This document shows, one piece after another, positions 2,967-54,111 of a DNA stretch of 64,000 nucleotides. The stretch is from Patescibacteria group bacterium (GTDB taxonomy: Bacteria; Patescibacteriota; JABMPQ01; JAQVVF01), in the NCBI GenBank assembly GCA_028699085.1, contig JAQVVF010000005.1, forward strand, positions 79 through 64,078, given 5' to 3'. The notes under the pieces are model-generated. The model was not told the DNA's origin. It saw nothing but the letters and a program-made list of their open reading frames with translations, and did not search any database. Both the position numbers and the translations under genes were made by a program. How positions within the stretch are numbered: position 1 is the stretch's first letter; each line of letters starts with the position of its first letter.

Positions 2967-2971
2967 AAATT

Positions 2972-5428: not shown

Positions 5429-5430
5429 CT

Positions 5431-8215: not shown

Positions 8216-8255
8216 CAATCAAAAAACACCGTTTTTTATAAAAAAATATTTTTAT

Positions 8256-22981: not shown

Positions 22982-23194
22982 CGTGTCCTCCTTCGAAGTC
23001 AATAATTCAGAGTGCTTACTTGCACAGGTCAAAATATATTAGCATATCTTTTTTATTTTGTCAATCAATACGTTATAATATCCCTTAATTAAGCCAAAAC
23101 AGAATATCACATATCCCCAAATTTTCCTTGCAAAATCATCATTATTTGTTATACTAATATTGTTTAGAAAACTCTAATTTTATGTTTAAAAAAT

Positions 23195-26425: not shown

Positions 26426-26971
26426 ATGTTTTATCTAATTTTTCAAGCGCTTTATTTCATATTACCTGCTGGAATCGCTAACATGGCTCCAGTTTTTGCA
26501 AAAAAGATTAATTTCTTAAATATTCCTGTTGATTTCGGAAAAAGCTTTCGTGGTCAAAGAATTTTTGGTGATCACAAGACTTGGCGTGGATATTTTTCTG
26601 CAATTATAATTGGTGTGATCGTTTCTGGCATTCAAGCTTATCTATATTTCAGTTTTGAATTCTTTCAATCCTTGACAATCTTCCCATTTAGAGAGTATAA
26701 TTTTATACTCTTCGGTTTTTTGTCAGCATTAGGTGCGATGATCGGAGATACAGTTAAAAGTTTCTTTAAACGTCAAGCAAATGTGCAGCCAGGTCAAAAG
26801 TTTATTCCTTGGGATCAAATTGATTTTATTCTCGGTGCATTAATCTTTATTTCATTCTATTTTCGTCCAAACTGGCTAGTTTACGTAATCTTGTTGGTCC
26901 TTGTGCCGTTTCTCCATGTTTTAATTAATAGAATCGGATTCTGGCTAGGTATTCACAAGACAAAATGGTAG
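26426..26971 (+). CDS. CDP-archaeol synthase-like membrane protein (CarS/DUF46 family CTP-transferase)
   Basis: 181-aa polytopic membrane protein with GDHKTWRG and GDTVKSFFKRQ...PWDQIDF motifs, which resemble the CarS family. Confidence 0.6.
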   Translation: MFYLIFQALYFILPAGIANMAPVFAKKINFLNIPVDFGKSFRGQRIFGDHKTWRGYFSAIIIGVIVSGIQAYLYFSFEFFQSLTIFPFREYNFILFGFLSALGAMIGDTVKSFFKRQANVQPGQKFIPWDQIDFILGALIFISFYFRPNWLVYVILLVLVPFLHVLINRIGFWLGIHKTKW

Positions 26972-27524: not shown

Positions 27525-28112
27525 ATGTTTATAAGGGAAATAAAAAAGTATTCAGATAATATTTTACCGCTTAAGTTTTATAAATTCTTAGAGCGAATAG
27601 GGTTGTCTCCAAACAAGCTTACCCTTTTCGCTCTTTTTTTTAAAATTTCGGTCCTTTATTTTTTCTATAACGGGCAAATTGTTCTCGGAGGAATATTTAT
27701 TGCTTGCGATTATTTTTTTGATTATTTAGATGGCACAATGGCAAGAAGATTGGACAGAGTTACTCCATTTGGTACATATTATGATACAGTTCTAGACAGA
27801 TTTTTCAGAACTGCAGGTTGGCCACTCTCATTGGCATTTGGCAGTATAATAACTTTCAAAATTGCAGCTCTTCTTATTGCTTTCAATTTACTCTTGATTT
27901 TCTCTTCAAGTGTGGTAGAATCATATAAATTGCGTCACTTCCCATTTATGTTGAATGTTTTTTATCTCATACCGTATGGCGCATTATTAAATCAAGTCGA
28001 GCTAGCTGCAACATTAGAAGCAATAGTTGCATTTATACTGCTAATAACTAATACAATTACAATAATTGTTTTAAATTTTAGAAATAATAGTGGAAGTCCA
28101 GCACATAAATAG
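27525..28112 (+). CDS. CDP-alcohol phosphatidyltransferase family membrane protein
   Basis: Perfect signature D-G-x2-A-R-x8-G-x3-D-x3-D (DGTMARRLDRVTPFGTYYDTVLD). Multi-TM. 195 aa. Confidence 0.75.
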   Translation: MFIREIKKYSDNILPLKFYKFLERIGLSPNKLTLFALFFKISVLYFFYNGQIVLGGIFIACDYFFDYLDGTMARRLDRVTPFGTYYDTVLDRFFRTAGWPLSLAFGSIITFKIAALLIAFNLLLIFSSSVVESYKLRHFPFMLNVFYLIPYGALLNQVELAATLEAIVAFILLITNTITIIVLNFRNNSGSPAHK

Positions 28113-29049: not shown

Positions 29050-29649
29050 TTAGGGTGCATTTTGTGTTTGTGATCTGATTAAATTAACAAATTCTTGGAT
29101 AGGTATATACATAATTCTTAAACCATTGAATTCTTTCAGAAAGGGCTGAATTTTTTCGTTTTCCATCCAAAAAGGTATCCAAAATTGTTTATTGCCATCA
29201 TTGATTTCTCTCAAGCAATAGAAAAGTCTTACAAACAATTCGCAAGCGCGAAAGATTCTACTCTCCATGCAATTTTCTTTTTGAATATCATAAATTAAAA
29301 GCAGTTTTTCTTGAAAATCAGCAGGTAAAAAGATAATCGCTTCTAAGAATTTTTCTCGCTCCAATCTTTCATCAGCTTCAGTTTTGTCCGGTTCTTGAAT
29401 ATCCCCAAAGCCATCCATTGCCTCTCCAAAATCATGAATTGTTCCCAAATCAGAAACAATTTCGCCATTAAACTTAACATCAGGATCGTATTTTTTGATC
29501 ATCGCTTTTGCCAGTTGAATAACAATGCCAAGCTTTATCGTATGCGCGGAAACATTTTCAAGATGTAATTTAGGAATATTTTTCCATCTTTGTTCATCTT
29601 GCAAGCCTTGTACAATTCTTACTAAACCTTCTTCAATCCGATGTGGCAT
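29050..29649 (-). CDS. HD-domain phosphohydrolase (YfbR-like 5'-deoxynucleotidase candidate)
   Basis: H...HD...D pattern (SAHT...IHDFGE...D). 199 aa. AAGGAGGA SD upstream. Confidence 0.6.
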   Translation of the reverse strand: MPHRIEEGLVRIVQGLQDEQRWKNIPKLHLENVSAHTIKLGIVIQLAKAMIKKYDPDVKFNGEIVSDLGTIHDFGEAMDGFGDIQEPDKTEADERLEREKFLEAIIFLPADFQEKLLLIYDIQKENCMESRIFRACELFVRLFYCLREINDGNKQFWIPFWMENEKIQPFLKEFNGLRIMYIPIQEFVNLIRSQTQNAP

Positions 29650-29826
29650 CCTCTTCCTCCTTTTCCCTCTTGTTTTTTTCTTAATTTTTTCTTAAAATAA
29701 AAAGAACACTCAAAATATCGATGATCAAAAAAAATGACAACGATTAGTTAAATTTAACATTTATTGAATAAGGAATCAATAATATAGTTATTTTAAATTT
29801 TTCGCTTTAAATTTTAATTTTGAAAT

Positions 29827-31266
29827 ATGTCAAACAAAAACAGCTGTCAAATTTACGTGTTGGAGGGATTAACGCCAGAAGTCCGAGCAGTCACTTTTGC
29901 CAAGTGTTCGCGTTCAGACAAATCTTTCAGGGAAATTGCCGCAGGCCTAACTGCCGAGAATTCTTCAAAATTCCATGAAAAATGGGTTGTTGGTTATGGC
30001 CATTCTTCAGTTGCTGAGCATGCTCCAATTTCGATTGCTATGGAAAATATTTCACTTCTTGCAGTAGAAGCAATCGAATCAAACCGTTTGGCTTCATATA
30101 CTGAAAAATCTTCTCGTTATCAAATTTATGATGAAGATCGAGTTTATTATCCAAAAGAATTTAAGCAAGATAAAGCGATCGACAAATTATTTCGCGATAC
30201 AATAAAATTACAGTTCGCTTTATATAAAAAAAGCATTAAGCCAATTCAAGAAATTATCTATCAAGAAAATCCAAAAGAAAAAGGCGAAGATCAAAAAGGT
30301 TATGAAGGCAGAGTAAGATCAAAATGGATTGATATGTGTCGTTATCTTTTGCCAAATGCTTGTTTTGCAAATTTAGGTATGACTGCAAATGCTAGAACTT
30401 ATGAAAATGCTTTAGTCAAATGGTTCTCGCATCCTTTATCTGAAGTACAAGAAATTGCGAAACAAGTAAAAAGAGAAGCTCTAAAAATTACTCCAACCTT
30501 AGTTAAATACGCTGATCCAAATAGCTATTTAATTGATTCTTACAAAATCTTGCCTAAAAAAGTAAAAACAATTTTAGGTGCAGAGAAAAAATATCTAGGC
30601 AAAGAAATTTTAGTTGAGTTAGTTGATTTTGATAAAGATGCTGAAAGAAAAGTATTAGCTGCGGTTATCTATCAATTCTCGAATATTCCATACAAAAAGG
30701 CTTATCAAAAAGCCAAAAGTTTAAAGAAAACTGACAAAGAAAAATTATTAGATAATATTCTAAAAAGAATCGGCAAGCATGACAAGCCATTACGTGCTTT
30801 AGAGCTTCCGTATTTTACTTTTGATTGCTTGATTGATCAAGGTGCTTATGCTGATTTAAAGAGAAATCGAATCATGACTCAACTACCACAAACTGTTACT
30901 ACAAAACATGGCTATTTTATTCCAAGAGCTTTTGTTTTGGCAGGTTTAGAAAAAGAATATAAAGAAGTTATGGAAGCAACAGATAAAGCCTTTAAAATAA
31001 TTTCCAAAAAGTTTCCTAATGAAGCAGGCTACATCGCTACAAAATCATATGGCCGTAGATTTTTGATGAAAATGAATCTTCGTGAATTATACTATTTCTG
31101 CTATTACAGAGGTGCAAATCCAGGTGGCCATGTTTCGTATCGTTTTGTCGGTACAAAAATGTATGAGCAAGCTTCTAAAAAATTTCCAACTTTAATGAAA
31201 TATCTACCATACATTTTTGATATGAATAGCAAAGAATTAAATAAATATTTTGAATATATTGCTTAA
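29827..31266 (+). CDS. ThyX-like (flavin-dependent thymidylate synthase family) protein, double length
   Basis: GHSSVAEH and NRLASYTEKSSRY resemble ThyX HxSVxEH and the RHRxxSxxxxSxRY motif (with H replaced by N). 479 aa, against ~250 aa for ThyX. Immediately upstream of tmk. Confidence 0.55.
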   Translation: MSNKNSCQIYVLEGLTPEVRAVTFAKCSRSDKSFREIAAGLTAENSSKFHEKWVVGYGHSSVAEHAPISIAMENISLLAVEAIESNRLASYTEKSSRYQIYDEDRVYYPKEFKQDKAIDKLFRDTIKLQFALYKKSIKPIQEIIYQENPKEKGEDQKGYEGRVRSKWIDMCRYLLPNACFANLGMTANARTYENALVKWFSHPLSEVQEIAKQVKREALKITPTLVKYADPNSYLIDSYKILPKKVKTILGAEKKYLGKEILVELVDFDKDAERKVLAAVIYQFSNIPYKKAYQKAKSLKKTDKEKLLDNILKRIGKHDKPLRALELPYFTFDCLIDQGAYADLKRNRIMTQLPQTVTTKHGYFIPRAFVLAGLEKEYKEVMEATDKAFKIISKKFPNEAGYIATKSYGRRFLMKMNLRELYYFCYYRGANPGGHVSYRFVGTKMYEQASKKFPTLMKYLPYIFDMNSKELNKYFEYIA

Positions 31267-31271
31267 ATTGT

Positions 31272-31904
31272 ATGAACAAAAATAGTTTTATTACTAATCC
31301 ATTTAAAGGCATATTTATTGCCTTTGAAGGATTAGATGGATCTGGGTTATCAACTCAAGTTGATTTATTAAATAAATATCTCAACAAACAAGGCTACAAA
31401 AGTTTTGCTACCAAAGAGCCAACCAATAATATAATTGGTGGTTTGATTCGAGGACTTCTCACTCATATCTGGAAAGCCAGCAATGAATGTTCGCAATTAT
31501 TGTTTACTGCAGATCGCGCCTTGCATTTAGAGAAAGAAATTATTCCAGCCTTAAAAAAGAAAAACATTATTATTACTGATCGCTATTTTTTCTCTACCGT
31601 TGCCTTTGGTTCGCTAAACATCAGAGATTTAGACTGGCTTGTTTCGCTTAATCAACATTTTATCTTGCCGGATTTAATTTTCTTAATTAAAGTTCCGCCA
31701 AAAGAATGTGTTAAGAGAATAAAGTCTTCAAGATTTCATAAAGAATTGTTTGAGGAAGAGATTAAGCTTAAAAAAATTTGGCGGACATATAACAAATTAG
31801 CTAAAATATTTCCGAATATTCACATTATTGACGGAAATCGTGATAAGAAAAAAGTTTTCGAAGAAATTTTTGAAATTGTAATAAAAAAATTAAAAAAGAA
31901 ATAG
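31272..31904 (+). CDS. tmk: Thymidylate kinase
   Basis: P-loop FEGLDGSGLSTQ, DRY motif and lid region. 210 aa. Confidence 0.85.
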   Translation: MNKNSFITNPFKGIFIAFEGLDGSGLSTQVDLLNKYLNKQGYKSFATKEPTNNIIGGLIRGLLTHIWKASNECSQLLFTADRALHLEKEIIPALKKKNIIITDRYFFSTVAFGSLNIRDLDWLVSLNQHFILPDLIFLIKVPPKECVKRIKSSRFHKELFEEEIKLKKIWRTYNKLAKIFPNIHIIDGNRDKKKVFEEIFEIVIKKLKKK

Positions 31905-33639: not shown

Positions 33640-34665
33640 ATGGCAACCGACAATATGCCTCAGATGTTTTTGGAAGATGTTGGTAGTTTGGTTCACTCGC
33701 ATGACGGTCAAAATGTTTGGTTGATCAAGGATTTAGATCAGCGCGAGGAATTTGAAGAATACATGTTGCCTCATGATATTTACGTCGTTGATTTTCCTGC
33801 GCTAGGAGTTGGCCAAAGATTTCTGTTAAGTCGTCATCTTTGCGGACCTGATAAGTTTTTCATGCTTCAGCAGATTGGTCATGCAATGGCAAAAATCTGC
33901 AAAAGAACGGGAATGTTTGATGGTGAAAAGCTGGCACAATTCATTATTCTTTACGGTGGTGAAGCCTACAACATGCATTTCTGTCAGCCACCTTTGGTTG
34001 ATGGAATCATGATTGATTCGACTTATATCAAATATGAACGAGTAGAGGATAGTACTCAGCAAAATGGTTTTAGGATCGAAAAACTCGCATTCTCCGGAAA
34101 ATGGTGGCAGGACAATATCTGGCTTTGTCTTGAAGAATGCGTTGCTTCTGGCAGTACAGTTGCGCATTTTGCAAAAGAAGGATTCGTAAATCATAAACCC
34201 AAGAAGCTTTTTATTTTTCCAGCTTGCGGTAGTTTCTTTGGCATTCAAGGAATCTATCAGGCTTGTTTGGAAAACGGAGTCGAGTTTGTTCCAGTATTCA
34301 ACTCTGCCTTGATTGATGTTGCGCCTGAAGGCTTGAAGCTTCCATATACTGATCTTGGCCTGCGTCCTCGTACGATCATGACTCGTGAATTCTGTGCTGC
34401 CGCGCGCCACCGCTATCAAGACACAAGCCTTTGTTTTGTGGGTGATATTGGAGATTCAATTCATCGTACCAAAAGATATATTATGGAAACTCTTGATGAC
34501 ATGCGATTGATTGGCTTTGATTTTGAAAGAGAGGATTGGAGCCGCTGGAATCCCAATGTTTTCTCCGAATATTTTCGCCAAAAGCTTGCAGAAGTATTTC
34601 CAGAAACGAGTCAACATTTTGAAACATTCTTATTCCGCGATTCTAGATTTCTGCTTTCCAAATAA
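33640..34665 (+). CDS. Hypothetical protein with a PRTase-like motif, probably horizontally acquired
   Basis: 341 aa. AAAGGAGGA SD. ~42% GC. IWLCLEECVASGST resembles the type I phosphoribosyltransferase signature but does not match it exactly. Confidence 0.45.
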   Translation: MATDNMPQMFLEDVGSLVHSHDGQNVWLIKDLDQREEFEEYMLPHDIYVVDFPALGVGQRFLLSRHLCGPDKFFMLQQIGHAMAKICKRTGMFDGEKLAQFIILYGGEAYNMHFCQPPLVDGIMIDSTYIKYERVEDSTQQNGFRIEKLAFSGKWWQDNIWLCLEECVASGSTVAHFAKEGFVNHKPKKLFIFPACGSFFGIQGIYQACLENGVEFVPVFNSALIDVAPEGLKLPYTDLGLRPRTIMTREFCAAARHRYQDTSLCFVGDIGDSIHRTKRYIMETLDDMRLIGFDFEREDWSRWNPNVFSEYFRQKLAEVFPETSQHFETFLFRDSRFLLSK

Positions 34666-37529: not shown

Positions 37530-38102
37530 ATGAAAGAAATCCAACCAGTGAACCTTGATAATTATTATGATCTTGCCAAAATAAAAAAAGAGATTGCCAC
37601 AATGAACAAAAAAGTTAATCCTTGGTTAGTTGGTATTCTTTGCGCCATTTCAGCTATCTCATACTTCATTTTTGCGATAAGCGGTGAGAACAGGGTCATT
37701 GGCATCAGCAGTACGATCATTTTTTTGCTTACATTAGCCCCAACAGCATACTTTGGTATTCGTAAATTTGACCAAGTTATGGCTCGAAGTTTGATTGAAA
37801 ATCCTAGCACTTTATACAATAAGCTCTGCATTCAAATCTGTCTGTGGGCAGATTTCGTTAATGCGCAAATTGCTGAATTTAATAGCATTTTGATAAATCA
37901 ATCAGCTGGCGAGTTACAAATCGATTTACTCGAACAGGCGACTGCTCTCGAATCAAAAAAGCGCCAGTTAAACGTTTTTCTAGAAAATCTTTATCGAGTA
38001 AAATCAGTTGATTTTCATCCCAATAATCTTAAAATGATGATTGCTGAGCTAGAAGAAAAAATCAGATTTGAAAATCAAATCAAGGCCATTACAATCGAAT
38101 AA
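37530..38102 (+). CDS. Hypothetical membrane/coiled-coil protein
   Basis: 190 aa. Two TM helices then a coiled coil. AAAGGAGGAG SD. Confidence 0.4.
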   Translation: MKEIQPVNLDNYYDLAKIKKEIATMNKKVNPWLVGILCAISAISYFIFAISGENRVIGISSTIIFLLTLAPTAYFGIRKFDQVMARSLIENPSTLYNKLCIQICLWADFVNAQIAEFNSILINQSAGELQIDLLEQATALESKKRQLNVFLENLYRVKSVDFHPNNLKMMIAELEEKIRFENQIKAITIE

Positions 38103-38377
38103 TCGCACCTTTAAGACCATTTGGTCTTTTTTTATGCTTACAAATCATGCAAATTTAAATTGAATTACGCGGATAAGAAAATATTTTTGAGACTCGTGGT
38201 TGTTAAACATTTACGCGATTAGCAAGTAATGAAATTATCAACAGCTCGTTTGTTTTAATAGCTGTTTTATTGTATAATAAAATAAAGTTTAAAAACATTA
38301 AAAATAAAAATACAAGCTTAAAAAAGCATATCTAGAAATTACATTTTTAGATAATCTTAATTTAAGTTTTTAACAAA

Positions 38378-39211
38378 ATGCCAAACGGAGTTCCTCCAAC
38401 AAATTTACCTACAAATGATCAAAAAAATTCAGCTAATGAACCACCAAAAACAACATTCAAGCCATCTCCTGATAGAGTTAAAAATTTTCGTAAACAAATG
38501 GGAAAAATAAATCCAGAACCTGGAATGCCAAGTCGTCCAACACCACCAACACCACCGACTCCATCAGCACCTCAATCTCCAAAACCACAGCCACCAATGC
38601 CTCCAAAACCAACAACTCCAGAACCTCCTCAATTTGCACCAAAAGCACCTACACCAGCTCCAATGACGCCAAAGCCAACTCCTCCTCCGACTCCAGCACC
38701 AAAACCTAAAGCTCCAGTTCCTCCTCAGCCAAAAAGTCCAGAAATGCCAGAGCAAGCAGACGGTCCTTCAATTGAACAAGTTGAAAAGAAAAATTTAGTT
38801 GTTAAAATAATTATTTTAATTGTTGTTGTTGCTGCTTTAGCTGGATTAGTTTTGGGTGGAGTTTTTGCTTATAATAAATGGCTTAGTCCGTCTTCAAAAA
38901 CAAATACTACTAATACAAATTTGAATACTAATACGCAAGTTATTCCAGAAAACATAATTATTAATGAACAAATTAAAATCAAAGATTCAGATGGTGATAC
39001 AATTACTGATGAATGGGAAATAAAATATGGCCTTGATCCTAATGATCCAGCTGATGCAAATAAAGATAACGACAAAGATAAGCTAATAAATATCGAAGAA
39101 TTCAAATACAAAACAAATCCGAATAGCCAAGACACAGATGGAGATACATTTAGCGATTACATTGAAATACAAAAGGGCTTTAATCCAAACGGTGCCGGTA
39201 AATTAAAATAG
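38378..39211 (+). CDS. Pro/Thr-rich single-pass membrane protein with C-terminal thrombospondin type-3-like Ca-binding repeats
   Basis: (PTPP)n low-complexity region, TM helix (IIILIVVVAALAGLVLGGV) and DxDxDG repeats (DSDGDTITD, DTDGDTFSD). Confidence 0.5.
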   Translation: MPNGVPPTNLPTNDQKNSANEPPKTTFKPSPDRVKNFRKQMGKINPEPGMPSRPTPPTPPTPSAPQSPKPQPPMPPKPTTPEPPQFAPKAPTPAPMTPKPTPPPTPAPKPKAPVPPQPKSPEMPEQADGPSIEQVEKKNLVVKIIILIVVVAALAGLVLGGVFAYNKWLSPSSKTNTTNTNLNTNTQVIPENIIINEQIKIKDSDGDTITDEWEIKYGLDPNDPADANKDNDKDKLINIEEFKYKTNPNSQDTDGDTFSDYIEIQKGFNPNGAGKLK

Positions 39212-39214
39212 TAT

Positions 39215-39739
39215 ATGCAAAATTCTGGATTTAACAAATCAGCACTGTCATCAAGCAATCAGCAAAATCAAAAACCAAATCTAGAATTCCAATATTTACA
39301 ACAAAACAACAAGAAACATTCGATTCTTGTTGTTTTACTGATTATATTTTTAATTATTATTCTCGGTATTATTTGCGTAATTGCTTATGATTTTTTTCAA
39401 AAAAACAAGCAAGCAAATCTAACTGCAGATTTATATAATCAAGATATCGATGGCGATGGGTTGACGACAATTGAAGAGCTAAAATATGGTACTGACCAAA
39501 ATCAATATGATACAGATTTTGATAAAATGCCAGATGGCTGGGAGACAAGAAACAATTTAGATCCAAAAGATTATCTTGATGCAGTTAAGGATAATGATGA
39601 AGATGGCTTAACAAATCTTCAAGAGCTGCAATATAATTCCAACCCGAATATTAAAGATACTGATAATGATGGTTTTAACGATGGCGATGAAGTAAAAAAC
39701 AATTATAATCCTAATGGTGAAGGTAAAATCATTAAATAA
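39215..39739 (+). CDS. Membrane-anchored thrombospondin type-3-repeat protein, paralog of the upstream gene
   Basis: N-terminal TM plus DIDGDGLT, DNDEDGLTNLQELQY and DTDNDGFNDGDE repeats. The C-terminus aligns with that of 38378..39211. Confidence 0.5.
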   Translation: MQNSGFNKSALSSSNQQNQKPNLEFQYLQQNNKKHSILVVLLIIFLIIILGIICVIAYDFFQKNKQANLTADLYNQDIDGDGLTTIEELKYGTDQNQYDTDFDKMPDGWETRNNLDPKDYLDAVKDNDEDGLTNLQELQYNSNPNIKDTDNDGFNDGDEVKNNYNPNGEGKIIK

Positions 39740-41117
39740 AAACTTTAAAAATAAATTTATTTATGCCAAAATTATTTTAATTTTAGGCATAGTTTTGTTT
39801 TTACCAAAAATTTCATTTGCTAAAATTCCATTCAATATTTTGGTCAGCACTGGTTTCGGTGTTAATCCTCAATTAAAAGAATTTTCTAATACTGGAAAAG
39901 TTGCCAGCTATTTATCAAATATAAAACAATTACCAAAAAACAATAAAGGCATTAACGTTGCTTCTGGCGATGTTGATGGTGATGCTATTGACGAGATAAT
40001 AATCGCTCAAAGAGCTGGCGGAAATTCAGAAGTTTTAGTTTTTGAGAAAAACGGCAAATTTAAAAAACCAATTTTGAATCCGTATCCTAATTCAGTTACT
40101 GGAGTAAATATTGCTGCAGGTGATGTTGATAAAGATGGCAAAGACGAAATTATTACAGTTCCTGCAGAAGGTGGAATTGCACAAGTTAAAATATATCGCT
40201 TCAATAAAAAACAAGAAATTATCAAAGAATTCAAGGCTTTTAGTGAAGATAAATGTGGAGGATCTGTTGCCTCAGGAGATATTGATCATGACGACAAAGA
40301 TGAAATAATTGTTGGCAATGGACCAAAATGTCCTCCAAAAGTTCGCGTTTATGAATCTAACGGCACTAGATTGCCATTAGAGTTTTATGCTTTTAATCCA
40401 AATTTTTTGGGCGGAATTGATGTTGCTGCCGGCGATGTTGATAAAGATGGAATTGATGAAATTGGCACTTGCCAATCTCAGCAGCAAGCTTGGTGCAAAA
40501 TTTACAAATATAAAAATTATACTCCTTTAATTGGTTCATGGCTTGCCTATAGCAATTTTGAAGTTGGCGCTAGAATTGATTTTGCTGATTTGGATTCTGA
40601 TGGCCGCGATGAAGTAATTACTGGTACGGCTCATGGCACTCCGCAAGTCCGTTTTTTTGAAGCATCAGGCGCTCCAATCAATATTAATTTTTACCCATTT
40701 CCAAAAAATTATGATTCCGGTATTGATGTCGCTCCATTTTTCGCTAACAACAAATCACAGGAAAAAGTCATTTATGTTGAAGATGGCGACAGTATTTATT
40801 TAACTGATAGTAGGGAAATGCGCTATATCGGTGTTAATGCTCCGGAAGTTGGCAAAAAGTATTATGAGCAAGCAATTAATCTAAACAAAAGGTTAGTTGA
40901 ACACAAAAATATAACTCTAGAATATGATGTTGATCGCGAAGATCATATTGGCCGAGATTTAGCTTATGTCTTTGTTGGAAAAAAATTTATTAACAAAATT
41001 ATAGTCGCCAAAGGCTTAGCCAAGGTTGATACTTATAAGCCAAATGTAAAATATCGATCAGTATTTAAAAAAGCCCAGCGTCGAGCTCAAAGATTGCACC
41101 TTGGAATGTGGAAGTGA
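39714..41117 (+). CDS. Secreted FG-GAP/VCBS-repeat beta-propeller protein fused to a staphylococcal-nuclease (SNase/thermonuclease) domain
   Basis: Signal peptide (...LPKISFA|K). At least five GDVDxDGxDEII FG-GAP-type repeats. C-terminal SNase-like region (IGVNAPE..., RDLAYVFV, ...QRLHLGMW). Confidence 0.65.
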   Translation: MVKVKSLNKNFKNKFIYAKIILILGIVLFLPKISFAKIPFNILVSTGFGVNPQLKEFSNTGKVASYLSNIKQLPKNNKGINVASGDVDGDAIDEIIIAQRAGGNSEVLVFEKNGKFKKPILNPYPNSVTGVNIAAGDVDKDGKDEIITVPAEGGIAQVKIYRFNKKQEIIKEFKAFSEDKCGGSVASGDIDHDDKDEIIVGNGPKCPPKVRVYESNGTRLPLEFYAFNPNFLGGIDVAAGDVDKDGIDEIGTCQSQQQAWCKIYKYKNYTPLIGSWLAYSNFEVGARIDFADLDSDGRDEVITGTAHGTPQVRFFEASGAPININFYPFPKNYDSGIDVAPFFANNKSQEKVIYVEDGDSIYLTDSREMRYIGVNAPEVGKKYYEQAINLNKRLVEHKNITLEYDVDREDHIGRDLAYVFVGKKFINKIIVAKGLAKVDTYKPNVKYRSVFKKAQRRAQRLHLGMWK

Positions 41118-41159: not shown

Positions 41160-42374
41160 TTAATCAATCAATTTCTTATAGCAAGGTATCGAATAAATAG
41201 ATCCGCAAATCAAAATAGGTAAATTATTTTTCAAAGCCAAATCAATGGCTTTTTTGATTGCTAAATTTAATTCCATGGTTTGTCCATTTTTATAATATTT
41301 TTTTAGTTGAACGGTACTGTACATCAAATCCATTTTTAGTTTAGGAAAAATAATTTCTAAAATTATTGGTTTCAAAATTTTCAAATTTTGTTTTGCATCT
41401 TTAGTTATTTTGGCAGAAAACAAAATGATTGCTTTTTTATATTTCAAATCTTTAAAAGTTTTTACCAAAGTTTTAAATCCGCCAGGATTATGCGCGCTAT
41501 CAATAATAATCGTTATTTTATTTTTACCAAGCTTTTTAAATCGCACATCGAATCTAGTTGGCCATTTAACTTTTAAAAATCCATTTTTAATTGCTTGTTC
41601 AGAAATTTTGTATTTCTCTTTTAGTTCATTTATCGCACTCAAGACAATGCCAGCATTTCGCCTCTGATGCTCACCTAAAAGTTTTAGTTTATACTTATTG
41701 CTTAATTTATCAGTCTTTATCAATTTAGCCTTTTTTTCTTTACAAACTTTTTTAATTACATTTAACGTTGTTCCTCGGTTCGAGGTAACGACAACAGAAT
41801 CAGACTTTATAATACCTGCTTTCTCTTTAGTAATCTTTGCAATTGTGTTACCTAAATATTCTTTATGGTCAATTGAGATATCGGTGATTGCAGAAATTCC
41901 AAGATTTAAAACATTAGTCGCATCTAATCTTCCGCCAAGACCAACTTCAAAGACTACAAAGTCAACTTTTTCGTCTCTAAAATATAATATTGCAATAACC
42001 GTTAAAATTTCAAACCAAGTTGGCTGATCATTTATCTCTTTTTTAACTTTTTTTACATAGGGCAAAATATATTCAAAATATTTCGCTAATCTTTTTTCAG
42101 AAATATCTTGATAATCAATCCTAATTCTTTCCGTCATTTTAAAAATATGTGGGGAAGTGAATAGTCCGACTTTGTATCCAGCTTGTGTCAAAATGCTCTG
42201 TAATGAGGCACTGACAGATCCTTTGCCATTTGTTCCAGCAACATGCACGCCTTTTAAATTATTTTCCGGATTACCAAGTTTCTCCAGCAATTTTTCAATT
42301 CTTCTCAGATCTAACCACGCCTTCTTTTTAGGAGGTGTGTCAAAAAGCTTTTCGTATTTTGTTAGGATTGACAT
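41160..42374 (-). CDS. folC: Folylpolyglutamate synthase/dihydrofolate synthase
   Basis: Mur-ligase family P-loop VHVAGTNGKGSV. 404 aa. Confidence 0.85.
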   Translation of the reverse strand: MSILTKYEKLFDTPPKKKAWLDLRRIEKLLEKLGNPENNLKGVHVAGTNGKGSVSASLQSILTQAGYKVGLFTSPHIFKMTERIRIDYQDISEKRLAKYFEYILPYVKKVKKEINDQPTWFEILTVIAILYFRDEKVDFVVFEVGLGGRLDATNVLNLGISAITDISIDHKEYLGNTIAKITKEKAGIIKSDSVVVTSNRGTTLNVIKKVCKEKKAKLIKTDKLSNKYKLKLLGEHQRRNAGIVLSAINELKEKYKISEQAIKNGFLKVKWPTRFDVRFKKLGKNKITIIIDSAHNPGGFKTLVKTFKDLKYKKAIILFSAKITKDAKQNLKILKPIILEIIFPKLKMDLMYSTVQLKKYYKNGQTMELNLAIKKAIDLALKNNLPILICGSIYSIPCYKKLID

Positions 42375-42463: not shown

Positions 42464-43159
42464 TTAAGCCCATTTCCTAAAGAATTCTTTTGTTATCATG
42501 TATCTGTGAGAAATCCTTAATCCTGACAAATTTACTTTTTTTGATAAATAATTTAAACAAGTATTAAAAATTGTATAGCTTGCCCAAATTCCTGAAGCAA
42601 ATAATCCTCTCTCAACTGCCACAACAGGAATCAAAGCGATCCAAACTGATGCCGGAAGATTAAAGGCATACAAAAACGCCACTGATCCAACAGCATGAGC
42701 AGTAAATGTTGAGCCTAAACTTTTTAAAATCAATCTGTCCGCTTTAAATGCGCAAACAATTGGAATTAGCCAGTATAATGCAAAAAACCAAGCTTGCCTT
42801 CCTTCTGGTTTCAACCAAAAAAGAATCATACAAATAGCTGGAGTTGCAATTCTAAATAATTTAGAATCCTTCTTAATTCCAAAATAAATTGCTGCAAAAA
42901 CCATTGGAAATAATCTGATTATGTTTGTCACATCAAAAGCTTGATGATGAAAAACAGTATTAAATATTTTGACCGCAAGAACAGAAATCGCAGCAGGGAT
43001 TGCACCTAAAAATCCGCCTGACATTGGAGCAAAAAAATCAAAGCCAGTAAATGCTTGTGAAGATCCCATTATTTTTGCAAAAGGGAATTGAAGCAGAATA
43101 TATCCGATAATCGTAAATAAGATTACAAATAAAATTTTTCTAAATAAATTTGATTTCAT
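42464..43159 (-). CDS. Polytopic membrane protein, possible ECF-transporter S component (folate-family candidate given folC adjacency)
   Basis: 231 aa with ~6 TM helices. Adjacency to folC is the only functional hint. Confidence 0.35.
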   Translation of the reverse strand: MKSNLFRKILFVILFTIIGYILLQFPFAKIMGSSQAFTGFDFFAPMSGGFLGAIPAAISVLAVKIFNTVFHHQAFDVTNIIRLFPMVFAAIYFGIKKDSKLFRIATPAICMILFWLKPEGRQAWFFALYWLIPIVCAFKADRLILKSLGSTFTAHAVGSVAFLYAFNLPASVWIALIPVVAVERGLFASGIWASYTIFNTCLNYLSKKVNLSGLRISHRYMITKEFFRKWA

Positions 43160-45043: not shown

Positions 45044-46177
45044 TTATTTTGTAATTATTTCCACGTTTCCAGATCCTCCTGGTACAGTCTTTTGCCAAAT
45101 AGGCGAAAAATAAATATCTACATTTTCAATATCTTCCTGGTATTTTTTATAATAAGTTTTTATTTCATCATAATTAAATCCAGTAATTTTTTCTTTATCC
45201 AATGCTTCTTTAGGTAATACTGGTTTTAAAAAAGCAGAGCAAGATATTTTAAAAATCGCTTGGTTTTTTTGTGGATTCAACTCAATTATTTCAGCTTTTA
45301 AATTATTTTCATCAAGTTCTGCAAATTCTTTTTCACCAATAATTTGTCCTTTTAATTTTGCAATTGCCAGATTTTCTAGCATTTCTTTATTTAACAAAAC
45401 TCCAGCAATTTTTAATTTTAAATCAGCTTTCAATTTATCTGCCTCTTCATTCGCATTGGCTGATGTCTTAAAGCTTGAAATTTCTTTTTTAAAAAGCTGA
45501 TCCCAAAGCTCTTCATTATCTTTTTGTTCATTTTTGATATCAGTCAAAAATTTAGAAAATAAATCATCAACTATTTTATTTCGTAAATTATTTATATCGT
45601 CATCAGAAACAATTTTGCCAGTCTTTTCGCCTCCAGTAAATTCTTCTTTATTTTCAGCATAAACTAAATCTTTCCAGCCAGACCAAAGTTTTACAAAAGT
45701 AAATTTTGTTGGTTTCAAATTTCCGGCAATGCCTTTTTGGCTGGCAATAACTTTCATTTCAACCTTATCTTTCGGTTTTAAAATCAAAGGCCCAGTTGTC
45801 TTAAAAATTATTTCTGAATTATCAGGTTTTAATTGTGAAGAAGCAACTAATGTTAATGCTTTATCTTGTTTGTTATAAACAGTAACTTTTCCAGAAGCAA
45901 AATCATCAACCTTTTTTTCTTTAATGTCTGTAATCTCTTCAGAACCTGCAATTTCTTTTTCCACAAATCTGCCACTAACAGATGTAGCATTAATTTTTTC
46001 TTTGCCAACTGCAATTTCAAAAGTCGTATCAATTTTTTCCTTGCGCAATTCTAAAGTTATCTTGGCTTTAGAGAAAGAAGTATAGAAGACAAAAACTAGT
46101 ACTAAGAAACTTATAATTCCAAAAACAAATATTATTTTATAAGGTGAGCGTGAAGGTCCAATTTTGCCTAAGTTCAT
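45044..46177 (-). CDS. Hypothetical membrane-anchored protein
   Basis: N-terminal TM then a 350-aa K/E-rich domain. No recognised family. Confidence 0.4.
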   Translation of the reverse strand: MNLGKIGPSRSPYKIIFVFGIISFLVLVFVFYTSFSKAKITLELRKEKIDTTFEIAVGKEKINATSVSGRFVEKEIAGSEEITDIKEKKVDDFASGKVTVYNKQDKALTLVASSQLKPDNSEIIFKTTGPLILKPKDKVEMKVIASQKGIAGNLKPTKFTFVKLWSGWKDLVYAENKEEFTGGEKTGKIVSDDDINNLRNKIVDDLFSKFLTDIKNEQKDNEELWDQLFKKEISSFKTSANANEEADKLKADLKLKIAGVLLNKEMLENLAIAKLKGQIIGEKEFAELDENNLKAEIIELNPQKNQAIFKISCSAFLKPVLPKEALDKEKITGFNYDEIKTYYKKYQEDIENVDIYFSPIWQKTVPGGSGNVEIITK

Positions 46178-50801: not shown

Positions 50802-53800
50802 CTATTGAGCTATTTTTGTAAATTCTGCGCTATTTAAAAATTCATTCTTGATGTCCTGTATTGATTTTCCTGATTGCTTCCAATAATTCACGCCTGAAAT
50901 ATCTGCAGCTCTTGCATACAAAGTTTCATATAATTCTTCGATTTGTGCTTCTTTGTCTTTGATTGCTTTTAATCTATCGTCATACTCTTTGCTCATAGCC
51001 AGCTCTTTTCTCATTTCTTTTGCATTAGGCAATGCAACCAATTTTTCTATACCTGTTTCGTCACCGCCTCGCTTTAATACTATTTGATATGCTAGGTCAG
51101 CTTCAGCTATCTTCTTTTCTTTTGGCTGCATTTTATTTATATTACCAACAGCTTCTGGACTGACCGAAATTGCAAATTTAGCTCCTGAAATATCAATCTG
51201 TTTATTGTCATTTCTTTCTATTTGCTTTGTCCAGTAATCAACTCCATTTTTATCAACAAATTTCTTTATATTATCTTTATATATTCTATCATGAATGCGT
51301 CGATACAAATTTTCGACAGCTTTTTTTGTACCCAATTTTGCTGCCGTTGCTTGCAGCCTCTTATCAAATTCTTTATATTTTCTGTCATTAAGCAACGTAA
51401 AATGTACCCCTCTCAAACTCAGAGGCTCTTGGTTATTTGTCGGTTTGTAGAAAAAATTTGCTCCACCTCCACGCAAACTTTTATCAGGTTGTACATATTT
51501 ATTAACCTGAAAATTATCTCCAAAGACTAAATTATAATAATAGAGAATTGTCTGAAATCTATTCAGCGTTTTAAAGTCACCAATATCTGAACATCTATCA
51601 GATAAGCTAACTTGGAAATAATATGGTTTTTGTCCAGCCACGTAACCTTGATCATTTTTGTCTGAAAATTCGCCGCCTTTTAGATTTTCAAGCACTGTAT
51701 AATATTTATTTTCATTATTTTCATAGTAGGTTTTTGCGTTCTGCAAATTTCCGCCGACTGCAATGCCATTATTATTAATCACAGCATCAGTAGTATATTT
51801 AAAATCTAGATCTTTATTTTTGTATTCATCCTTGCCAGTTTCCCATTTAATAACAACTCTGTCAGCTCCTCGCTGTATTAACTGAGGATTTTTTAATAAA
51901 TCAGCATCATTGCTCGGGCAAAACGCTTGATCTTCGCTTAATGCAGTAACTTTTATTGGAGCAGCATTAGCTAAAGGATGAACAAAAGTAAGCTTTGCTT
52001 CATATTCTCCAGGGTTTTGATATACGTGTTCAGGATTTGCTACATCTTGCAATGTTGTACCATCACCAAAATCCCAAGTATATGGTACGCCTGTCAGATC
52101 AATATCTTTATATAAATTCTCAAAACTAAAACTGACCGTTAGAGGAGCCTTGCCAGCATTTGGGTTGGCATTGATTTTTACTCCACTGGCGTATATCCAT
52201 GGCCCATTTACATATTTTGTATTTCCATCAGCATCTCTGACTGCCAAAGCTGTACTATAAATCCCAGAGTTTTTATATTTAAAAGTAGGGCTTGATTCAT
52301 CGCTATCAAGCAATTGGTACTCAGAAATCGGCTCCTGATTATACATTTCATCAGATTTTGCGAATTCCCAGTCATATTTATAAGGTCCTTTTCCGCCCGT
52401 TACTGTTGCCGTAAATTTAACATCCATTGGCGCAAGTCCTTGAGTTGGTGTCGCATCAATTGACACATTCAATGCACCCAAATCAACTTCTCCTCCGGGT
52501 GGTTCTGGCAGAGGTTCATCTCCAAGTTCGCCAGTTTTTACGGTAAAATCAAGTCGATCTAAATATATACTAGTTGGCAACGTAACCATCTCCTTTGATA
52601 CAGAGGTATTTGCAGGTACTGCGTTTGGGTCATCCGGAGTAATAATTTGAATATTCGAAATGCCTGGATTTAATGCCTTTATTTTTGCTCCTTGATAACA
52701 TTTTGTCCCAAAACCACCGCTACTGCAATCAACTTCTACAGTATCTAGTTTAATTAAATTTTCAGCAAAATTAGTTTTTGTATCTTCCTTCTGTGCTTGT
52801 TTAAAATCAATCGTGTCAGATTGTGGAATTGTAAAAAAATTTACATCCTCACTACCTTTAAAAGAAACAATATTTTCCAGAGGTTTATTATATTCAACTC
52901 CATTAGGATTACCAGTATTAGTATTAAATTCATATCCTAATGCATATTTTAAACCGCTTGCAGTCTGTTGAAAAATATCCTGATTAAAGTTATAAACAAA
53001 ATTATAATTAATATCTCTTACCAAATCCACTTTTCGCCAAGTCGCTCCTTTGTCAAAGCTAAAAAATAATTTTAAATCACTTGCTTTAATAGAGTCTCGA
53101 TATTCAGCAAGGGGATAATATATTCTATCTAGCCACAATTTACCTTCAATTCCTTTTATGCTTTTTCCGCTAATATTTATTTCATTTGCACCAGCATGAG
53201 TTTCTGATAATTCTTTAGAAAGTATTAATTTATTTGTTAATTTTTCTTCAAAAAATGGTTTTGCAGTTCCGAGCCCAGCATTAGTTATGTTATTAAAAAC
53301 TGCTTCGTCACTTGTTAGGTCGCTGTCTACGGTAATTTCTAAAGAATTACTTGGTATTCCGCAAATTCCAGCACTAATTGTCGATTTTCCTTTAAAAACC
53401 GGTATGATGCTGCCATTGGCTGTCATTAAAAGCACTTTAGGTTGACTCGATTTCCATCTTAAAAGATCAGACCAAGTAATTGAATTATAATTAACAAAAT
53501 CATCGCCAATACTAGATCCATCAAAATCTCCAGTATCTGGATTAATTGGCTTGCCATTTATGCTAATTTGAATTGCGTTTCTTAGTCTATCAATGCCAAA
53601 TCTTAACCAAGAAGATTGGACGCTATTATCAACAATTGTTACTTTCTGAGGGTTTGGAGTGATTTCAATTGTATCAATTTTGTTTGCTAGAGAAGTAGAG
53701 CATAAATAATTTGTTGATTCTGTATTAAGGTCTTTACTAAAACTATTTTCGTTACTTGCTAGCTCAATATTATTATATTCTTCCGTTACATTTTGAAAAT

Positions 53801-54098
53801 TACCATTTGCGTCAACAATTGTAGTCTCTTCTGTTAGGCCGACTAGCTTGCCTTCATTTCCAAGAACTAAATCATTTGCATCATCAAAAGCCTCCGAAAA
53901 TTCAATTGTTCCTGTTCCCAATCTAGCTACACCAAAATACCAGATTGCAGTTCCAATTCCAATAGCAACTAAAATAGCAAAAACGATTCCAGTTGCGATT
54001 CTAGTCCTGCTTCTAGTCGCAGTTTTTGTTGATAACTCTTCTTGATTATTCATATTTTTTTTATTATGCGTCAATGATTTTTGCCATTTTTTTGGCAT
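50802..54098 (-). CDS. Large membrane-anchored surface protein with PKD domains and C-terminal DUF4214-like repeats
   Basis: 1098 aa. N-terminal TM. PKD-like segments (GGKGPYKYDWEF; YTWDFGDGT...GEY). Two C-terminal (D/G)VNYW...EF repeats. Confidence 0.6.
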   Translation of the reverse strand: MPKKWQKSLTHNKKNMNNQEELSTKTATRSRTRIATGIVFAILVAIGIGTAIWYFGVARLGTGTIEFSEAFDDANDLVLGNEGKLVGLTEETTIVDANGNFQNVTEEYNNIELASNENSFSKDLNTESTNYLCSTSLANKIDTIEITPNPQKVTIVDNSVQSSWLRFGIDRLRNAIQISINGKPINPDTGDFDGSSIGDDFVNYNSITWSDLLRWKSSQPKVLLMTANGSIIPVFKGKSTISAGICGIPSNSLEITVDSDLTSDEAVFNNITNAGLGTAKPFFEEKLTNKLILSKELSETHAGANEINISGKSIKGIEGKLWLDRIYYPLAEYRDSIKASDLKLFFSFDKGATWRKVDLVRDINYNFVYNFNQDIFQQTASGLKYALGYEFNTNTGNPNGVEYNKPLENIVSFKGSEDVNFFTIPQSDTIDFKQAQKEDTKTNFAENLIKLDTVEVDCSSGGFGTKCYQGAKIKALNPGISNIQIITPDDPNAVPANTSVSKEMVTLPTSIYLDRLDFTVKTGELGDEPLPEPPGGEVDLGALNVSIDATPTQGLAPMDVKFTATVTGGKGPYKYDWEFAKSDEMYNQEPISEYQLLDSDESSPTFKYKNSGIYSTALAVRDADGNTKYVNGPWIYASGVKINANPNAGKAPLTVSFSFENLYKDIDLTGVPYTWDFGDGTTLQDVANPEHVYQNPGEYEAKLTFVHPLANAAPIKVTALSEDQAFCPSNDADLLKNPQLIQRGADRVVIKWETGKDEYKNKDLDFKYTTDAVINNNGIAVGGNLQNAKTYYENNENKYYTVLENLKGGEFSDKNDQGYVAGQKPYYFQVSLSDRCSDIGDFKTLNRFQTILYYYNLVFGDNFQVNKYVQPDKSLRGGGANFFYKPTNNQEPLSLRGVHFTLLNDRKYKEFDKRLQATAAKLGTKKAVENLYRRIHDRIYKDNIKKFVDKNGVDYWTKQIERNDNKQIDISGAKFAISVSPEAVGNINKMQPKEKKIAEADLAYQIVLKRGGDETGIEKLVALPNAKEMRKELAMSKEYDDRLKAIKDKEAQIEELYETLYARAADISGVNYWKQSGKSIQDIKNEFLNSAEFTKIAQ

Positions 54099-54111
54099 TT
54101 TTTAAATTTAT

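Follow-up and report, generated by a model that had tools for sequence, protein, structure and literature searches.

What does the stretch of three genes at positions 38378-41117 of the window (the whole 64,000-nucleotide stretch of patescibacterial DNA analysed here) encode, and do its products act together at the cell surface? An initial annotation had described three co-oriented genes for a cell-surface, calcium-organised nuclease apparatus. Three same-strand, closely packed open reading frames, designated A, B and C, are present on the + strand, with a spacing of 3 nt between A and B and an overlap of 26 nt between B and C.

38113..38128, + strand: hairpin with a T-run, terminator-like, which closes an upstream 190-aa gene and sets the 5' limit of the A-B-C unit
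38378..39211, + strand: gene A, 277 aa, single-pass membrane protein with a Ca-binding TSP3 unit
39215..39739, + strand: gene B, 174 aa, single-pass membrane protein, paralogue of A
39714..41117, + strand: gene C, 467 aa, predicted secreted FG-GAP propeller/SNase fusion

The hairpin resembles an intrinsic terminator and divides A-B-C from the upstream gene (37530-38102), which encodes a two-TM/coiled-coil protein. This gene was considered as a fourth member and left out, because of the intervening terminator and its absence from deeper related loci. The gene downstream of C is FolC-like and convergent. Gene spacing, the upstream terminator and the conservation of the block predict that A-B-C is one operon of this Patescibacteria (CPR) bacterium. 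The surrounding genes in the window are housekeeping genes. A PADLOC search returned a domain-level SNc+LTD match only (E 3.3e-9), plus a low-complexity match in A, and a PHROGs search returned an SNase match at the domain level only; a defence-system or phage origin was ruled out by these domain-level matches together with the housekeeping surroundings.

Gene C had been described as a signal-peptide protein that joins FG-GAP/VCBS repeats to a C-terminal SNase domain, and its predicted features are as follows.

39714..39821, + strand: Sec-type signal peptide, aa 1-36, assigned heuristically, with predicted cleavage between SFA and KIP
39831..40748, + strand: FG-GAP beta-propeller, aa 40-345, assigned by Pfam and by the strand count of the AF2 model
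40752..41114, + strand: SNase (thermonuclease) OB-fold domain, aa 347-467, assigned by Pfam, PDB sequence match and Foldseek
40836..40838, + strand: AAT codon of Asn375, at the site of Ca ligand D40 in S. aureus nuclease

The N-terminus of C divides into a K-rich n-region (MVKVKSLNKNFKNK), an 11-residue hydrophobic core (IILILGIVLFL) and a c-region (PKISFA, with cleavage before K) bearing small residues at -3 and -1. These small residues are conserved in orthologues, where A36 is at least 90% conserved and the site reads VLA, SYA, SSA, SQA or ALA, and by these heuristic features C likely possesses a Sec-type signal peptide, as had been claimed. There is no lipobox Cys within aa 1-50 of C, and no LPXTG motif in A, B or C.

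Both halves of the fusion were recovered by Pfam above the gathering score. The propeller region matches FG-GAP_3 (E 4.4e-20, 72.5 bits against a cut-off of 26.9) and FG-GAP (E 5.2e-16, 58.6 against 22.1 bits), and aa 369-467 match SNase PF00565 (E 8.2e-16, 58.8 bits against a 21-bit cut-off). The propeller contains five DxDxD loops, at aa 86, 137, 189, 241 and 292, in agreement with the claim of at least five repeats. In the AF2 model of C (pLDDT 83.9) it has 24 predicted strands, which suggests about six blades, five with Ca loops and one closing blade; the FG-GAP propeller of integrin alpha is closed and has seven blades. A Cys253/Cys261 pair in the propeller is invariant in orthologues.

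No sequence relatives of the propeller were found in the PDB at E <= 0.01, and 733 cluster representatives match it at E <= 1e-30. Among the best 120 matches, the partner domains include SNase, YkuD, GH18, M23, S8, deacetylase, M14, metallophosphatase and amidase_2. Enzymes or surface domains of at least 11 further types are joined to the propeller, which can therefore be regarded as a generic carrier module. In Patescibacteria, many other enzymes that act on the envelope or degrade polymers also carry this propeller. The literature on FG-GAP domains in CPR bacteria gives them passing mention only.

The SNase domain matches PDB SNase sequences by phmmer (E 2.5e-14), and Foldseek superimposes the AF2 model on S. 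aureus nuclease with a TM score (target) of 0.86 and an rmsd of 1.7-1.8 A over 127 columns at 33% identity, showing that C shares the OB-fold catalytic domain of Nuc and Nuc2 (PF00565). C is placed by sequence in the SNase family and is not an equivalog of NucI (87 against a cut-off of 250 bits) or EcnA (40.1 against 180 bits), both NCBIfam scores lying below the cut-off. The equivalents of the S. aureus active-site residues are D357/D359 (D19/D21), R370 (R35), N375 (D40), E378 (E43) and R414 (R87), and in C the T41 site is occupied by A376 and the Y85 site by I412. C and Nuc/Nuc2 thus have the catalytic Arg/Glu/Arg and D21 in common, whereas D40 of the S. aureus enzyme is Asn in C. All 17 fusion orthologues have D21, R35, E43 and R87; in a wider set of 89 SNase homologues, D19, D21, R35 and E43 are present in all 89 and R87 in 88. 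At the D40 site, Asn is found in the window and in relatives at >= 61% identity, and Asp in deeper orthologues.

The replacement of a Ca ligand raises the alternative that the domain is degenerate and, like that of eukaryotic Tudor-SN, does not cut but binds nucleic acids or acts as a scaffold. The residues at 375, 376 and 412 would fit such a loss, but the five active-site residues D19, D21, R35, E43 and R87 are all kept and are invariant in orthologues, deeper orthologues retain Asp at D40, and otherwise intact natural homologues from many phyla possess Asn at D40 (24/89) or Ala at T41 (29/89). A degenerate domain is therefore very improbable, and an inactive SNase was ruled out as a reading, given that the catalytic residues are all kept and that Asn is frequent at the D40 site in natural homologues. 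The frequency of both substitutions in natural homologues indicates that N375 and A376 are probably compatible with Ca binding. The side-chain oxygen of Asn is still able to ligate Ca2+. A literature search on D40N in staphylococcal nuclease found nothing relevant. The initial annotation had named missing catalytic residues or a missing signal peptide as grounds for giving up its reading; with R35, E43, R87, D21 and the signal-peptide features all found, neither ground applies to C.

Genes A and B had been described as membrane-anchored paralogues with DxDxDG repeats, one of them with a long PTPP linker.

38378..38779, + strand: Pro-rich PTPP-type N-terminal tail of A, aa 1-134 (47 Pro in the first 140 aa)
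38798..38872, + strand: TM helix of A, aa 141-165 (Kyte-Doolittle peak 3.13)
38969..39208, + strand: TSP3/Binary_toxB-like Ca-binding unit of A, aa 198-277 (TSPdom HMM 9.9e-35)
39320..39388, + strand: TM helix of B, aa 36-58
39437..39736, + strand: ectodomain of B, aa 75-174; it contains four DxDxD Ca loops, and its PDGWE motif is invariant

Each protein possesses one TM helix, and the two share 50% identity across the 74-aa C-terminal unit (E 1e-19). TSP3_bac was recovered above its 25-bit gathering cut-off in both, at 26.5 bits in A (E 5.7e-6) and, over three stretches, at 42.4 bits in B (E 6e-11), and the Binary_toxB Ca-domain was recovered at or above the gathering score in A (E 6.7e-6). 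The description as membrane-anchored paralogues therefore holds, and the Pfam searches that the initial annotation had suggested recovered the TSP3_bac, FG-GAP and SNase domains at or above the gathering score. The PTPP linker, however, was misplaced: the Pro-rich region of A lies N-terminal to the TM helix instead of linking anchor and repeats, and is therefore probably a cytoplasmic tail. The topology of A and B was assigned by heuristics, and the positive-inside rule is ambiguous for both.

The Ca-binding unit of A contains three DxDxD loops and ends in NPNGAGKL. A is orthologous to the first TSP3 gene of related loci, which encodes 353-420 aa, and lacks the extra C-terminal domain of about 140 aa seen in those orthologues. 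A weak 9-nt tandem repeat lies at 38537-38571, in the region of the A tail. B is 100% identical to NCBI PHN19_03335 from a Patescibacteria group bacterium, and its ectodomain is modelled by AF2 with pLDDT > 93. The sole local PDB match of this ectodomain is the Ca-binding EF-hand pair of S. aureus Bap (44 residues, rmsd 1.1 A). Foldseek comparison with the thrombospondin type-3 structures 1yo8 and 2rhp gave E 2.6-2.8 and rmsd 9-10 A, and a thrombospondin-like fold for B was dropped for lack of a significant match. Pfam Dockerin_1 and Cohesin gave no match in A, B or C at E <= 0.1, and membership of these families was likewise rejected. The DxDxDG-type Ca loops of A and B are common to bacterial TSP3 surface proteins (PF18884; Myxococcus CglD/MtsD) and the Bap EF-hand pair, whereas A and B differ from these in being very short single-pass membrane proteins with one compact unit.

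Two or three TSP-unit genes lie directly upstream of an FG-GAP-SNase gene in eight distinct loci (the window, L001/2, L003/4, L005, L006, L007, L090 and L093), in which the relatives of C exhibit 35-86% identity. By this comparison, A, B and C form a lineage-conserved block. TSP-unit neighbours were found at none of the 80 listed stand-alone SNase loci, 10 of them from Patescibacteria; these derive from a contig profile scan that keyed on SNase motifs, and are a control set rather than orthologues. In a metagenome scan seeded with B, the matches were mostly generic large TSP3-repeat proteins, and the scan yielded the operon copy L093 and a set of fusion architectures. At least 7 of the 80 TSP-unit loci (L091, L096, L099, L100, L120, L139 and L140) encode a propeller and a PDGWE/DxDxDGLTN unit in one chain, and two more gave weak single-chain matches to both. 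All three complete single-chain sequences inspected end in a C-terminal TM anchor, and the propeller in these fusions is of the PQQ/BamB-like FG-GAP subtype.

These data bear on a possible but less favoured explanation, that the genes are co-located and functionally independent, with A and B as Ca-dependent surface structural or adhesion proteins and C as a released soluble nuclease. The propeller of C would then bind a substrate or host-surface ligand, or merely stabilise the enzyme. MiaB and ThrRS, which flank the block, are also kept in the same related loci, suggesting that gene order is generally stable in the lineage and that part of the A-B-C adjacency may therefore be plain synteny. 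Two paralogous propeller enzymes, L008 (SNase-N/propeller-C) and L009 (GH18), have no TSP3 neighbours, the check on non-SNase propeller enzymes covering one locus, L009. In relatives, additional TSP3 anchors carry ectodomains that are unrelated (one cupredoxin-like, one a 140-aa domain of no named family), suggesting that the anchors have jobs of their own. Among NCBIfam models, the cohesion/gliding adhesins MtsD and CglD come nearest to A and B, with scores far under the cut-off. Against independence stand the 3-nt gap and 26-nt overlap, the persistence of the block down to ~35% identity of C, the lack of such neighbours at the 80 listed stand-alone SNase genes, and the existence elsewhere of single-chain proteins with propeller, TSP unit and TM anchor. 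The fusions are weak evidence of specific binding, because each of the two extracellular Ca modules, FG-GAP and TSP3, is promiscuous; the PQQ/BamB-like subtype of the fused propellers also counts against the tether reading.

The preferred reading, as a whole of middling confidence, is that the operon would encode an extracellular, Ca2+-dependent, sugar-non-specific SNase-family nuclease and two membrane-anchored Ca-binding partners, likely a tether, with a role in salvage. C would be exported by Sec and its signal peptide cleaved, and the mature protein would consist of a Ca-loaded, ~six-blade FG-GAP propeller bearing a catalytically competent SNase domain. As C possesses no membrane anchor, lipobox or sortase signal, its retention at the surface would have to be non-covalent, and the propeller is its likely retention or targeting module. 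A and B would be N-in/C-out single-pass proteins that expose, close to the outer face of the membrane, a conserved Ca-binding TSP3 unit of 75-100 aa. They would most likely tether the propeller near the membrane or act as its scaffold there; operon conservation and the single-chain propeller-TSP3-TM proteins found elsewhere suggest that A, B and C may form one physical, calcium-organised apparatus.

A large part of uncultured bacterial diversity consists of Patescibacteria, which as a rule cannot synthesise nucleotides and are believed to feed on hosts or on polymers from their surroundings. The operon would likely serve to break down nucleic acids from the environment or a host and so allow nucleotides or phosphate to be salvaged. 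Salvage-type genes in the window encode ThyX, thymidylate kinase and a YfbR-like 5'-deoxynucleotidase. De novo nucleotide synthesis, which the initial annotation took to be lacking in this organism, is typically missing from members of the phylum (PMC10633639) and may be missing here. Scavenging of DNA is a reasonable idea and not a new one: SNc-type secreted nucleases were found in 15 of 28 Patescibacteria MAGs, for which nucleobase salvage was proposed (PMC11495043). It is unlikely that the nuclease serves mainly non-nutritional ends, such as remodelling of or escape from an eDNA matrix (biofilm or host surface), host attack, or limiting foreign DNA. Such ends would accord with the action of Nuc/Nuc2 in biofilm control (PMC3994088), with the range of roles reviewed for extracellular nucleases (PMC6085458), and with the cell-wall hydrolases (M23, amidase_2, GH18) that the C-type propeller also carries and that could act on a host envelope. 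In S. epibionticum, the one genetically tractable patescibacterium, the DNA uptake (com) genes are dispensable for growth (PMC10633639), which weakens a nutritional role for extracellular DNA but does not exclude it. The salvage-type genes count against these ends, however, and no pointer to defence or attack is present at the locus, where PADLOC and PHROGs gave domain-level SNase matches only.

Comparison with known systems shows that the arrangement is a new accessory layout on a well-known nuclease type, and not a new kind of system. Nuc2 is a surface-attached, Ca-dependent extracellular nuclease (PMC3994088); it possesses an N-terminal signal anchor and Nuc is a free single-domain enzyme, whereas C has a predicted cleavable signal peptide followed by a 300-aa FG-GAP propeller. 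The B. subtilis nucleases YokF/YncB (lipoprotein) and YhcR (sortase substrate) and H. volcanii Hvo_1477, an SNase + lamin-tail lipoprotein, are surface-bound SNase-family enzymes that metabolise extracellular DNA (PMC3929857, PMC11458576). The proposed physiological logic is the same for C, but those enzymes are attached covalently by lipid or sortase, whereas C has neither lipobox nor LPXTG, bears a propeller and is encoded beside two TSP3 membrane proteins. C lacks the lipid and sortase anchors that Firmicutes and archaea use. The conserved operon, which would pair a competent secreted nuclease with two membrane anchors dedicated to it, is a concrete, clonable candidate for keeping a scavenging enzyme at the patescibacterial cell surface; if the tether idea is wrong, C is just a further secreted nuclease of the SNase family to which a propeller has been added.

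A broader and quite unlikely proposal is that short TSP3-unit membrane proteins could serve the propeller-tagged exoenzymes of Patescibacteria as a docking platform that depends on Ca2+. The nuclease, L,D-transpeptidases, M23/S8 peptidases, GH18 enzymes, deacetylases and phosphatases, which have one FG-GAP propeller in common, would then be displayed through non-covalent propeller-TSP3 binding. A monoderm ultra-small bacterium would thus have a surface display resembling that of the cellulosome or of integrin and thrombospondin, and the nuclease operon would be merely the place where the anchors are encoded. The cohesin-dockerin pair of the cellulosome is an analogy only, in that a small duplicated Ca module could mediate non-covalent display of exoenzymes; there the Ca unit sits on the enzyme, whereas in A-B-C it sits on the anchor, and the binding proposed here is hypothetical.

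The wider point, that one FG-GAP propeller tags many patescibacterial exoenzymes, may prove of greater use than the nuclease, as a common tag offers a testable targeting or retention module for surface biology across the phylum. Patescibacterial VCBS/FG-GAP exoenzymes share the propeller module of C at 30-49% identity, likewise fused to a secreted enzyme, and differ from C in the catalytic partner. No experimental characterisation of them was found in the literature searched. They include proteins named 'VCBS repeat domain-containing M23 family metallopeptidase' at NCBI and fusions of FG-GAP with L,D-transpeptidase, GH18 or S8.

Three co-oriented open reading frames, here called A, B and C, are present on the forward strand where the initial annotation had placed them:

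38113-38128, hairpin and T-run that terminates the preceding 190-aa gene
38378-39211, + strand, gene A, 277 aa, membrane protein with TSP3-type calcium repeats
39215-39739, + strand, gene B, 174 aa, second such membrane protein
39714-41117, + strand, gene C, 467 aa, FG-GAP propeller/SNase fusion
41160-42374, convergent, Mur-ligase/FolC-like gene, next downstream of C

A and B are spaced by 3 nt and B runs 26 nt into C, and given this packing, the upstream hairpin and the convergent downstream gene, A-B-C would most simply be one transcription unit. The 190-aa gene (37530-38102, +), set apart from the operon by the terminator, encodes a protein that has two TM segments, ends in a coiled coil and falls in no Pfam family; its counterpart (36% identity) occurs only in the closest related genome, at locus L001, where an uncompared second gene of 238 aa adjoins it.

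The proposal that C joins FG-GAP repeats to a C-terminal SNase domain agrees with Pfam matches at or above gathering scores (FG-GAP_3, 72.5 bits; FG-GAP, 58.6 bits; SNase, 58.8 bits against a gathering score of 21). Residues 351-466 align to S. aureus nuclease (phmmer against the PDB, E 2.5e-14), and in an AlphaFold2 (AF2) model of C with 18 orthologues as input (mean pLDDT 83.9) the C-terminal domain fits solved SNase structures at a TM of 0.86 and an rmsd of 1.7-1.8 Å. Aligning 17 fusion orthologues to S. aureus nuclease shows D19/D21, R35, E43 and R87 (D357/D359, R370, E378 and R414 in C) to be invariant, and the sole deviation among these active-site positions is at the Ca ligand D40, which is Asn375 in the window. 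This site is Asn in the window and the five relatives nearest to it (61-96% identity); deeper orthologues have Asp. A set of 89 SNase homologues from many phyla, collected with a scan pattern that permitted D or N here, has Asn in 24 and Asp in 65; all 89 retain D19, D21, R35 and E43, and 88 retain R87. Since Asn occurs in these 24 with the other active-site residues kept, the alignment indicates that Asn375 is an ordinary natural variant rather than a mark of decay. The catalytic Arg, Glu and Asp residues, whose absence the initial annotation took as the sign against a nuclease, are retained, and with one altered ligand set against these, a dead SNase domain is highly improbable. The domain is an ordinary PF00565 member, not an equivalog of NucI or EcnA. 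Deeper FG-GAP-SNase orthologues carry an aromatic/amphipathic C-terminal extension of 20-40 aa, e.g. FWDLFDFFKMLF, that is absent in the window's clade and, judging by its composition, might be a membrane-associating tail (alignment A1: P0006, P0007, P0011, P0013, P0014, P0019, P0030).

The N-terminus of C comprises a lysine-rich n-region, an 11-residue hydrophobic core and SFA/K at the putative cleavage site. Small residues at -3/-1 are kept in orthologues (VLA, SYA, SSA, SQA, ALA), A36 is at least 90% conserved in them, and in the AF2 model residues 9-28 form an isolated helix with a disordered stretch after it. The signal peptide claimed earlier is therefore recognisable, and its cleavage is predicted. 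The invariant Cys253/Cys261 pair of the propeller fits an extracytoplasmic protein, and neither a lipobox nor an LPXTG motif was found in C. C is probably an active secreted nuclease.

A matches TSP3_bac (26.5 bits; gathering score 25) and Binary_toxB, the anthrax-PA-type Ca domain, and B matches TSP3_bac in three stretches (42.4 bits, at or above the gathering score). Each has one strong hydrophobic helix (A residues 141-165, B residues 36-58), and their Ca units, at the C-terminus, share 50% identity (E 1e-19), in keeping with the two membrane-bound calcium-repeat paralogues described previously. The PTPP 'linker' reported alongside them does not stand: in A, the PTPP-rich region precedes the TM helix on the N-terminal side and so, from its position, is a tail. 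The B ectodomain is modelled at pLDDT >93 with short helices between the Ca loops. In the PDB, structure and sequence searches both lead to only one neighbour, the EF-hand pair that binds Ca in S. aureus Bap (44 residues at 1.1 Å rmsd, Foldseek E 0.13, phmmer E 0.005), and the PDB structural search gave no significant match to thrombospondin. The positive-inside rule gives no clear orientation for A or B; the ectodomains are presumably C-out, as Ca sites of this kind depend on the Ca concentrations found outside the cell.

An NCBI protein labelled 'Patescibacteria group bacterium' matches B with 100% identity, and the closest source-annotated relative of C (P0003, 85% identity) is labelled likewise. 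When the contigs of progressively more distant C orthologues were looked up, two or three genes encoding a TM helix and the TSP unit (the conserved Ca-binding ectodomain unit of A and B) were found immediately upstream of the FG-GAP-SNase gene in L001-L007, with C identities of 85% by BLASTP and 86% in alignment (L001/L002), 41% (L003/L004), 35% (L005), 36% (L006) and 41% (L007). Starting from B homologues adds further copies of the block at L090 and L093, the latter a metagenomic copy with a transposase-like gene inserted between the B and C orthologues (L093:1548-2189, -, 213 aa, assigned by sequence alone). By blastp, A is the orthologue of the blocks' first gene without its extra ~140-aa domain and B that of the last, and the window's clade lacks the TSP3+cupredoxin gene that stands between these two. 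Deeper relatives have three TSP-unit anchors compared with two in the window (L003:3381-5976, L005:3035-5835, L006:3066-5881, L007:3161-5826, L090:1963-5068); their middle gene joins a TSP3 unit to a cupredoxin-like domain, and the extra C-terminal domain of the A orthologue is uncharacterised and bears the motif WLKQDRGNF.

With HMMs for the TSP unit, propeller and SNase domain applied to ±6 kb, none of 80 stand-alone SNase loci among the matches listed (10 from Patescibacteria) has a TSP-unit gene in that range, and TSP3 neighbours are likewise absent around two paralogous propeller proteins, L008 and L009. All block loci have MiaB and ThrRS on the flanks of the block, which points to generally conserved gene order in this lineage and limits what can be drawn from linkage. 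Between the recurrent block and this conserved setting, independent function of anchors A/B and enzyme C is possible but unlikely. A and B are, tentatively, the best candidates for a membrane-proximal partner of the propeller.

In at least 7 of the 80 metagenome loci fetched with the TSP unit, one chain combines a signal sequence, an FG-GAP/PQQ-like propeller and tandem TSP units with the same PDGWE...DxDxDGLTN...EEY...TDP motif as A and B (L091:1814-4930, L096:609-6770, L099:3519-5837, L100:1444-3750, L120:103-2133, L139:6281-7966, L140:326-2668). Pfam confirms the architecture, e.g. in L120 (FG-GAP_3 2e-39, TSP3_bac 5e-17). The TM anchor is C-terminal to the TSP units in the three complete sequences inspected (L096, L099, L120) and is the last element in L099 and L120. 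The TSP units thus lie between propeller and membrane, the geometry expected from the operon if the C propeller sat on A or B. By analogy, these chains offer Rosetta-stone-type evidence for a propeller/TSP association, which is weak given that propeller and TSP unit alike are promiscuous Ca-binding repeats of extracellular proteins. The single-chain loci are possibly archaeal, since Heimdallarchaeaceae or Njordarchaeota is the source label of some B homologues.

The propeller, at 30-49% identity over ~300 aa, is common to patescibacterial proteins with differing catalytic domains. Approximate partner counts among the best 120 matches to C are L,D-transpeptidase YkuD ~24, SNase ~18, GH18 ~14, M23 peptidase ~13, S8 protease ~10, Glyco_hydro_cc ~4, He_PIG ~4, polysaccharide deacetylase ~3, M14 ~3, metallophosphatase ~3, amidase_2 ~1 and GHL15 ~1. 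With GH85 grouped with GH18, at least 11 non-SNase enzyme or surface-domain partners occur in Patescibacteria (fusion examples: P0010, P0015, P0025, P0039, P0057, P0075, P0087, P0056, P0049). When the propeller alone was run by phmmer exhaustively against 1.84 billion cluster representatives, 733 matched at E <= 1e-30 and 16,819 at E <= 1e-3, with the module at either protein end. Given the many differing catalytic partners, the 733 matches and the either-end placement, the propeller looks like a generic module that carries or targets secreted enzymes across the phylum. Many propeller-bearing enzymes act on the cell envelope. A distinctly doubtful extension is that many exoenzymes are displayed at the cell surface through Ca-dependent docking of propeller to TSP3 unit. 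A literature search found no description of the propeller as a shared exoenzyme tag, of the C architecture or of the A-B-C operon.

In the best reading as a whole, to which we give an even chance, C would be secreted, bind Ca2+ in propeller and active site, and cleave DNA or RNA outside the cell. As C has no covalent anchor, the propeller would most likely provide non-covalent retention or targeting, with A/B as partner, and the likely purpose would be nucleotide or phosphate salvage. This role fits the typical lack of de novo nucleotide synthesis in Patescibacteria (PMC10633639), the SNc-type secreted nucleases in 15 of 28 Patescibacteria MAGs, for which the same salvage hypothesis was proposed (PMC11495043), the growth on extracellular DNA supported by surface-bound SNase nucleases in B. 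subtilis and Haloferax (PMC3929857), and the salvage-type genes within the window (ThyX, thymidylate kinase and a YfbR-like 5'-deoxynucleotidase). Set against these, a non-nutritional role for C is rather improbable. The salvage idea is already published and the catalytic domain is ordinary; the difference lies in C's equipment. Unlike Nuc, Nuc2, YokF, YhcR and Hvo_1477, C has a Ca-loaded propeller rather than a signal anchor, lipid or sortase signal, and is encoded together with two dedicated TSP3 membrane proteins in a conserved operon. Automatic database labels for such proteins include 'FG-GAP-like repeat-containing protein' and 'endonuclease YncB'.

The salvage-type cluster spans 29050-31904, with the YfbR-like gene on the - strand, and its ThyX is unusually long (479 aa, two matched stretches). 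ORFs of 341 aa (33640-34665) and 231 aa (42464-43159) have no Pfam match at E <= 0.1, nor do those of 377 aa (45044-46177) and 284 aa (57901-58755) at E <= 0.001. A 460-aa ORF (21650-23032, -) without a Pfam family is locally GC-richer (0.39 compared with ~0.32) and is overlapped on the + strand by a 389-aa antisense shadow ORF. At 453-7845 (+), a Type I restriction-modification cluster comprises an HsdR-like helicase, a fused HsdM+HsdS (818 aa) and an AAA_13 ATPase (804 aa), and is followed by a 'Bact_hydrolase' gene (7869-8738). This bacterial genome also encodes a 181-aa CDP-archaeol synthase family match (26426-26971, +; CarS-like, PF01864, E 1e-31) near a CDP-alcohol phosphatidyltransferase (27525-28112), from which the ribosomal L11 gene (27045-27515) separates it. 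Encoded at 50802-57015 (-) are two probable surface proteins of very large size (1098 aa and 967 aa) that carry PKD domains as well as DUF4214 domains at the C-terminus.
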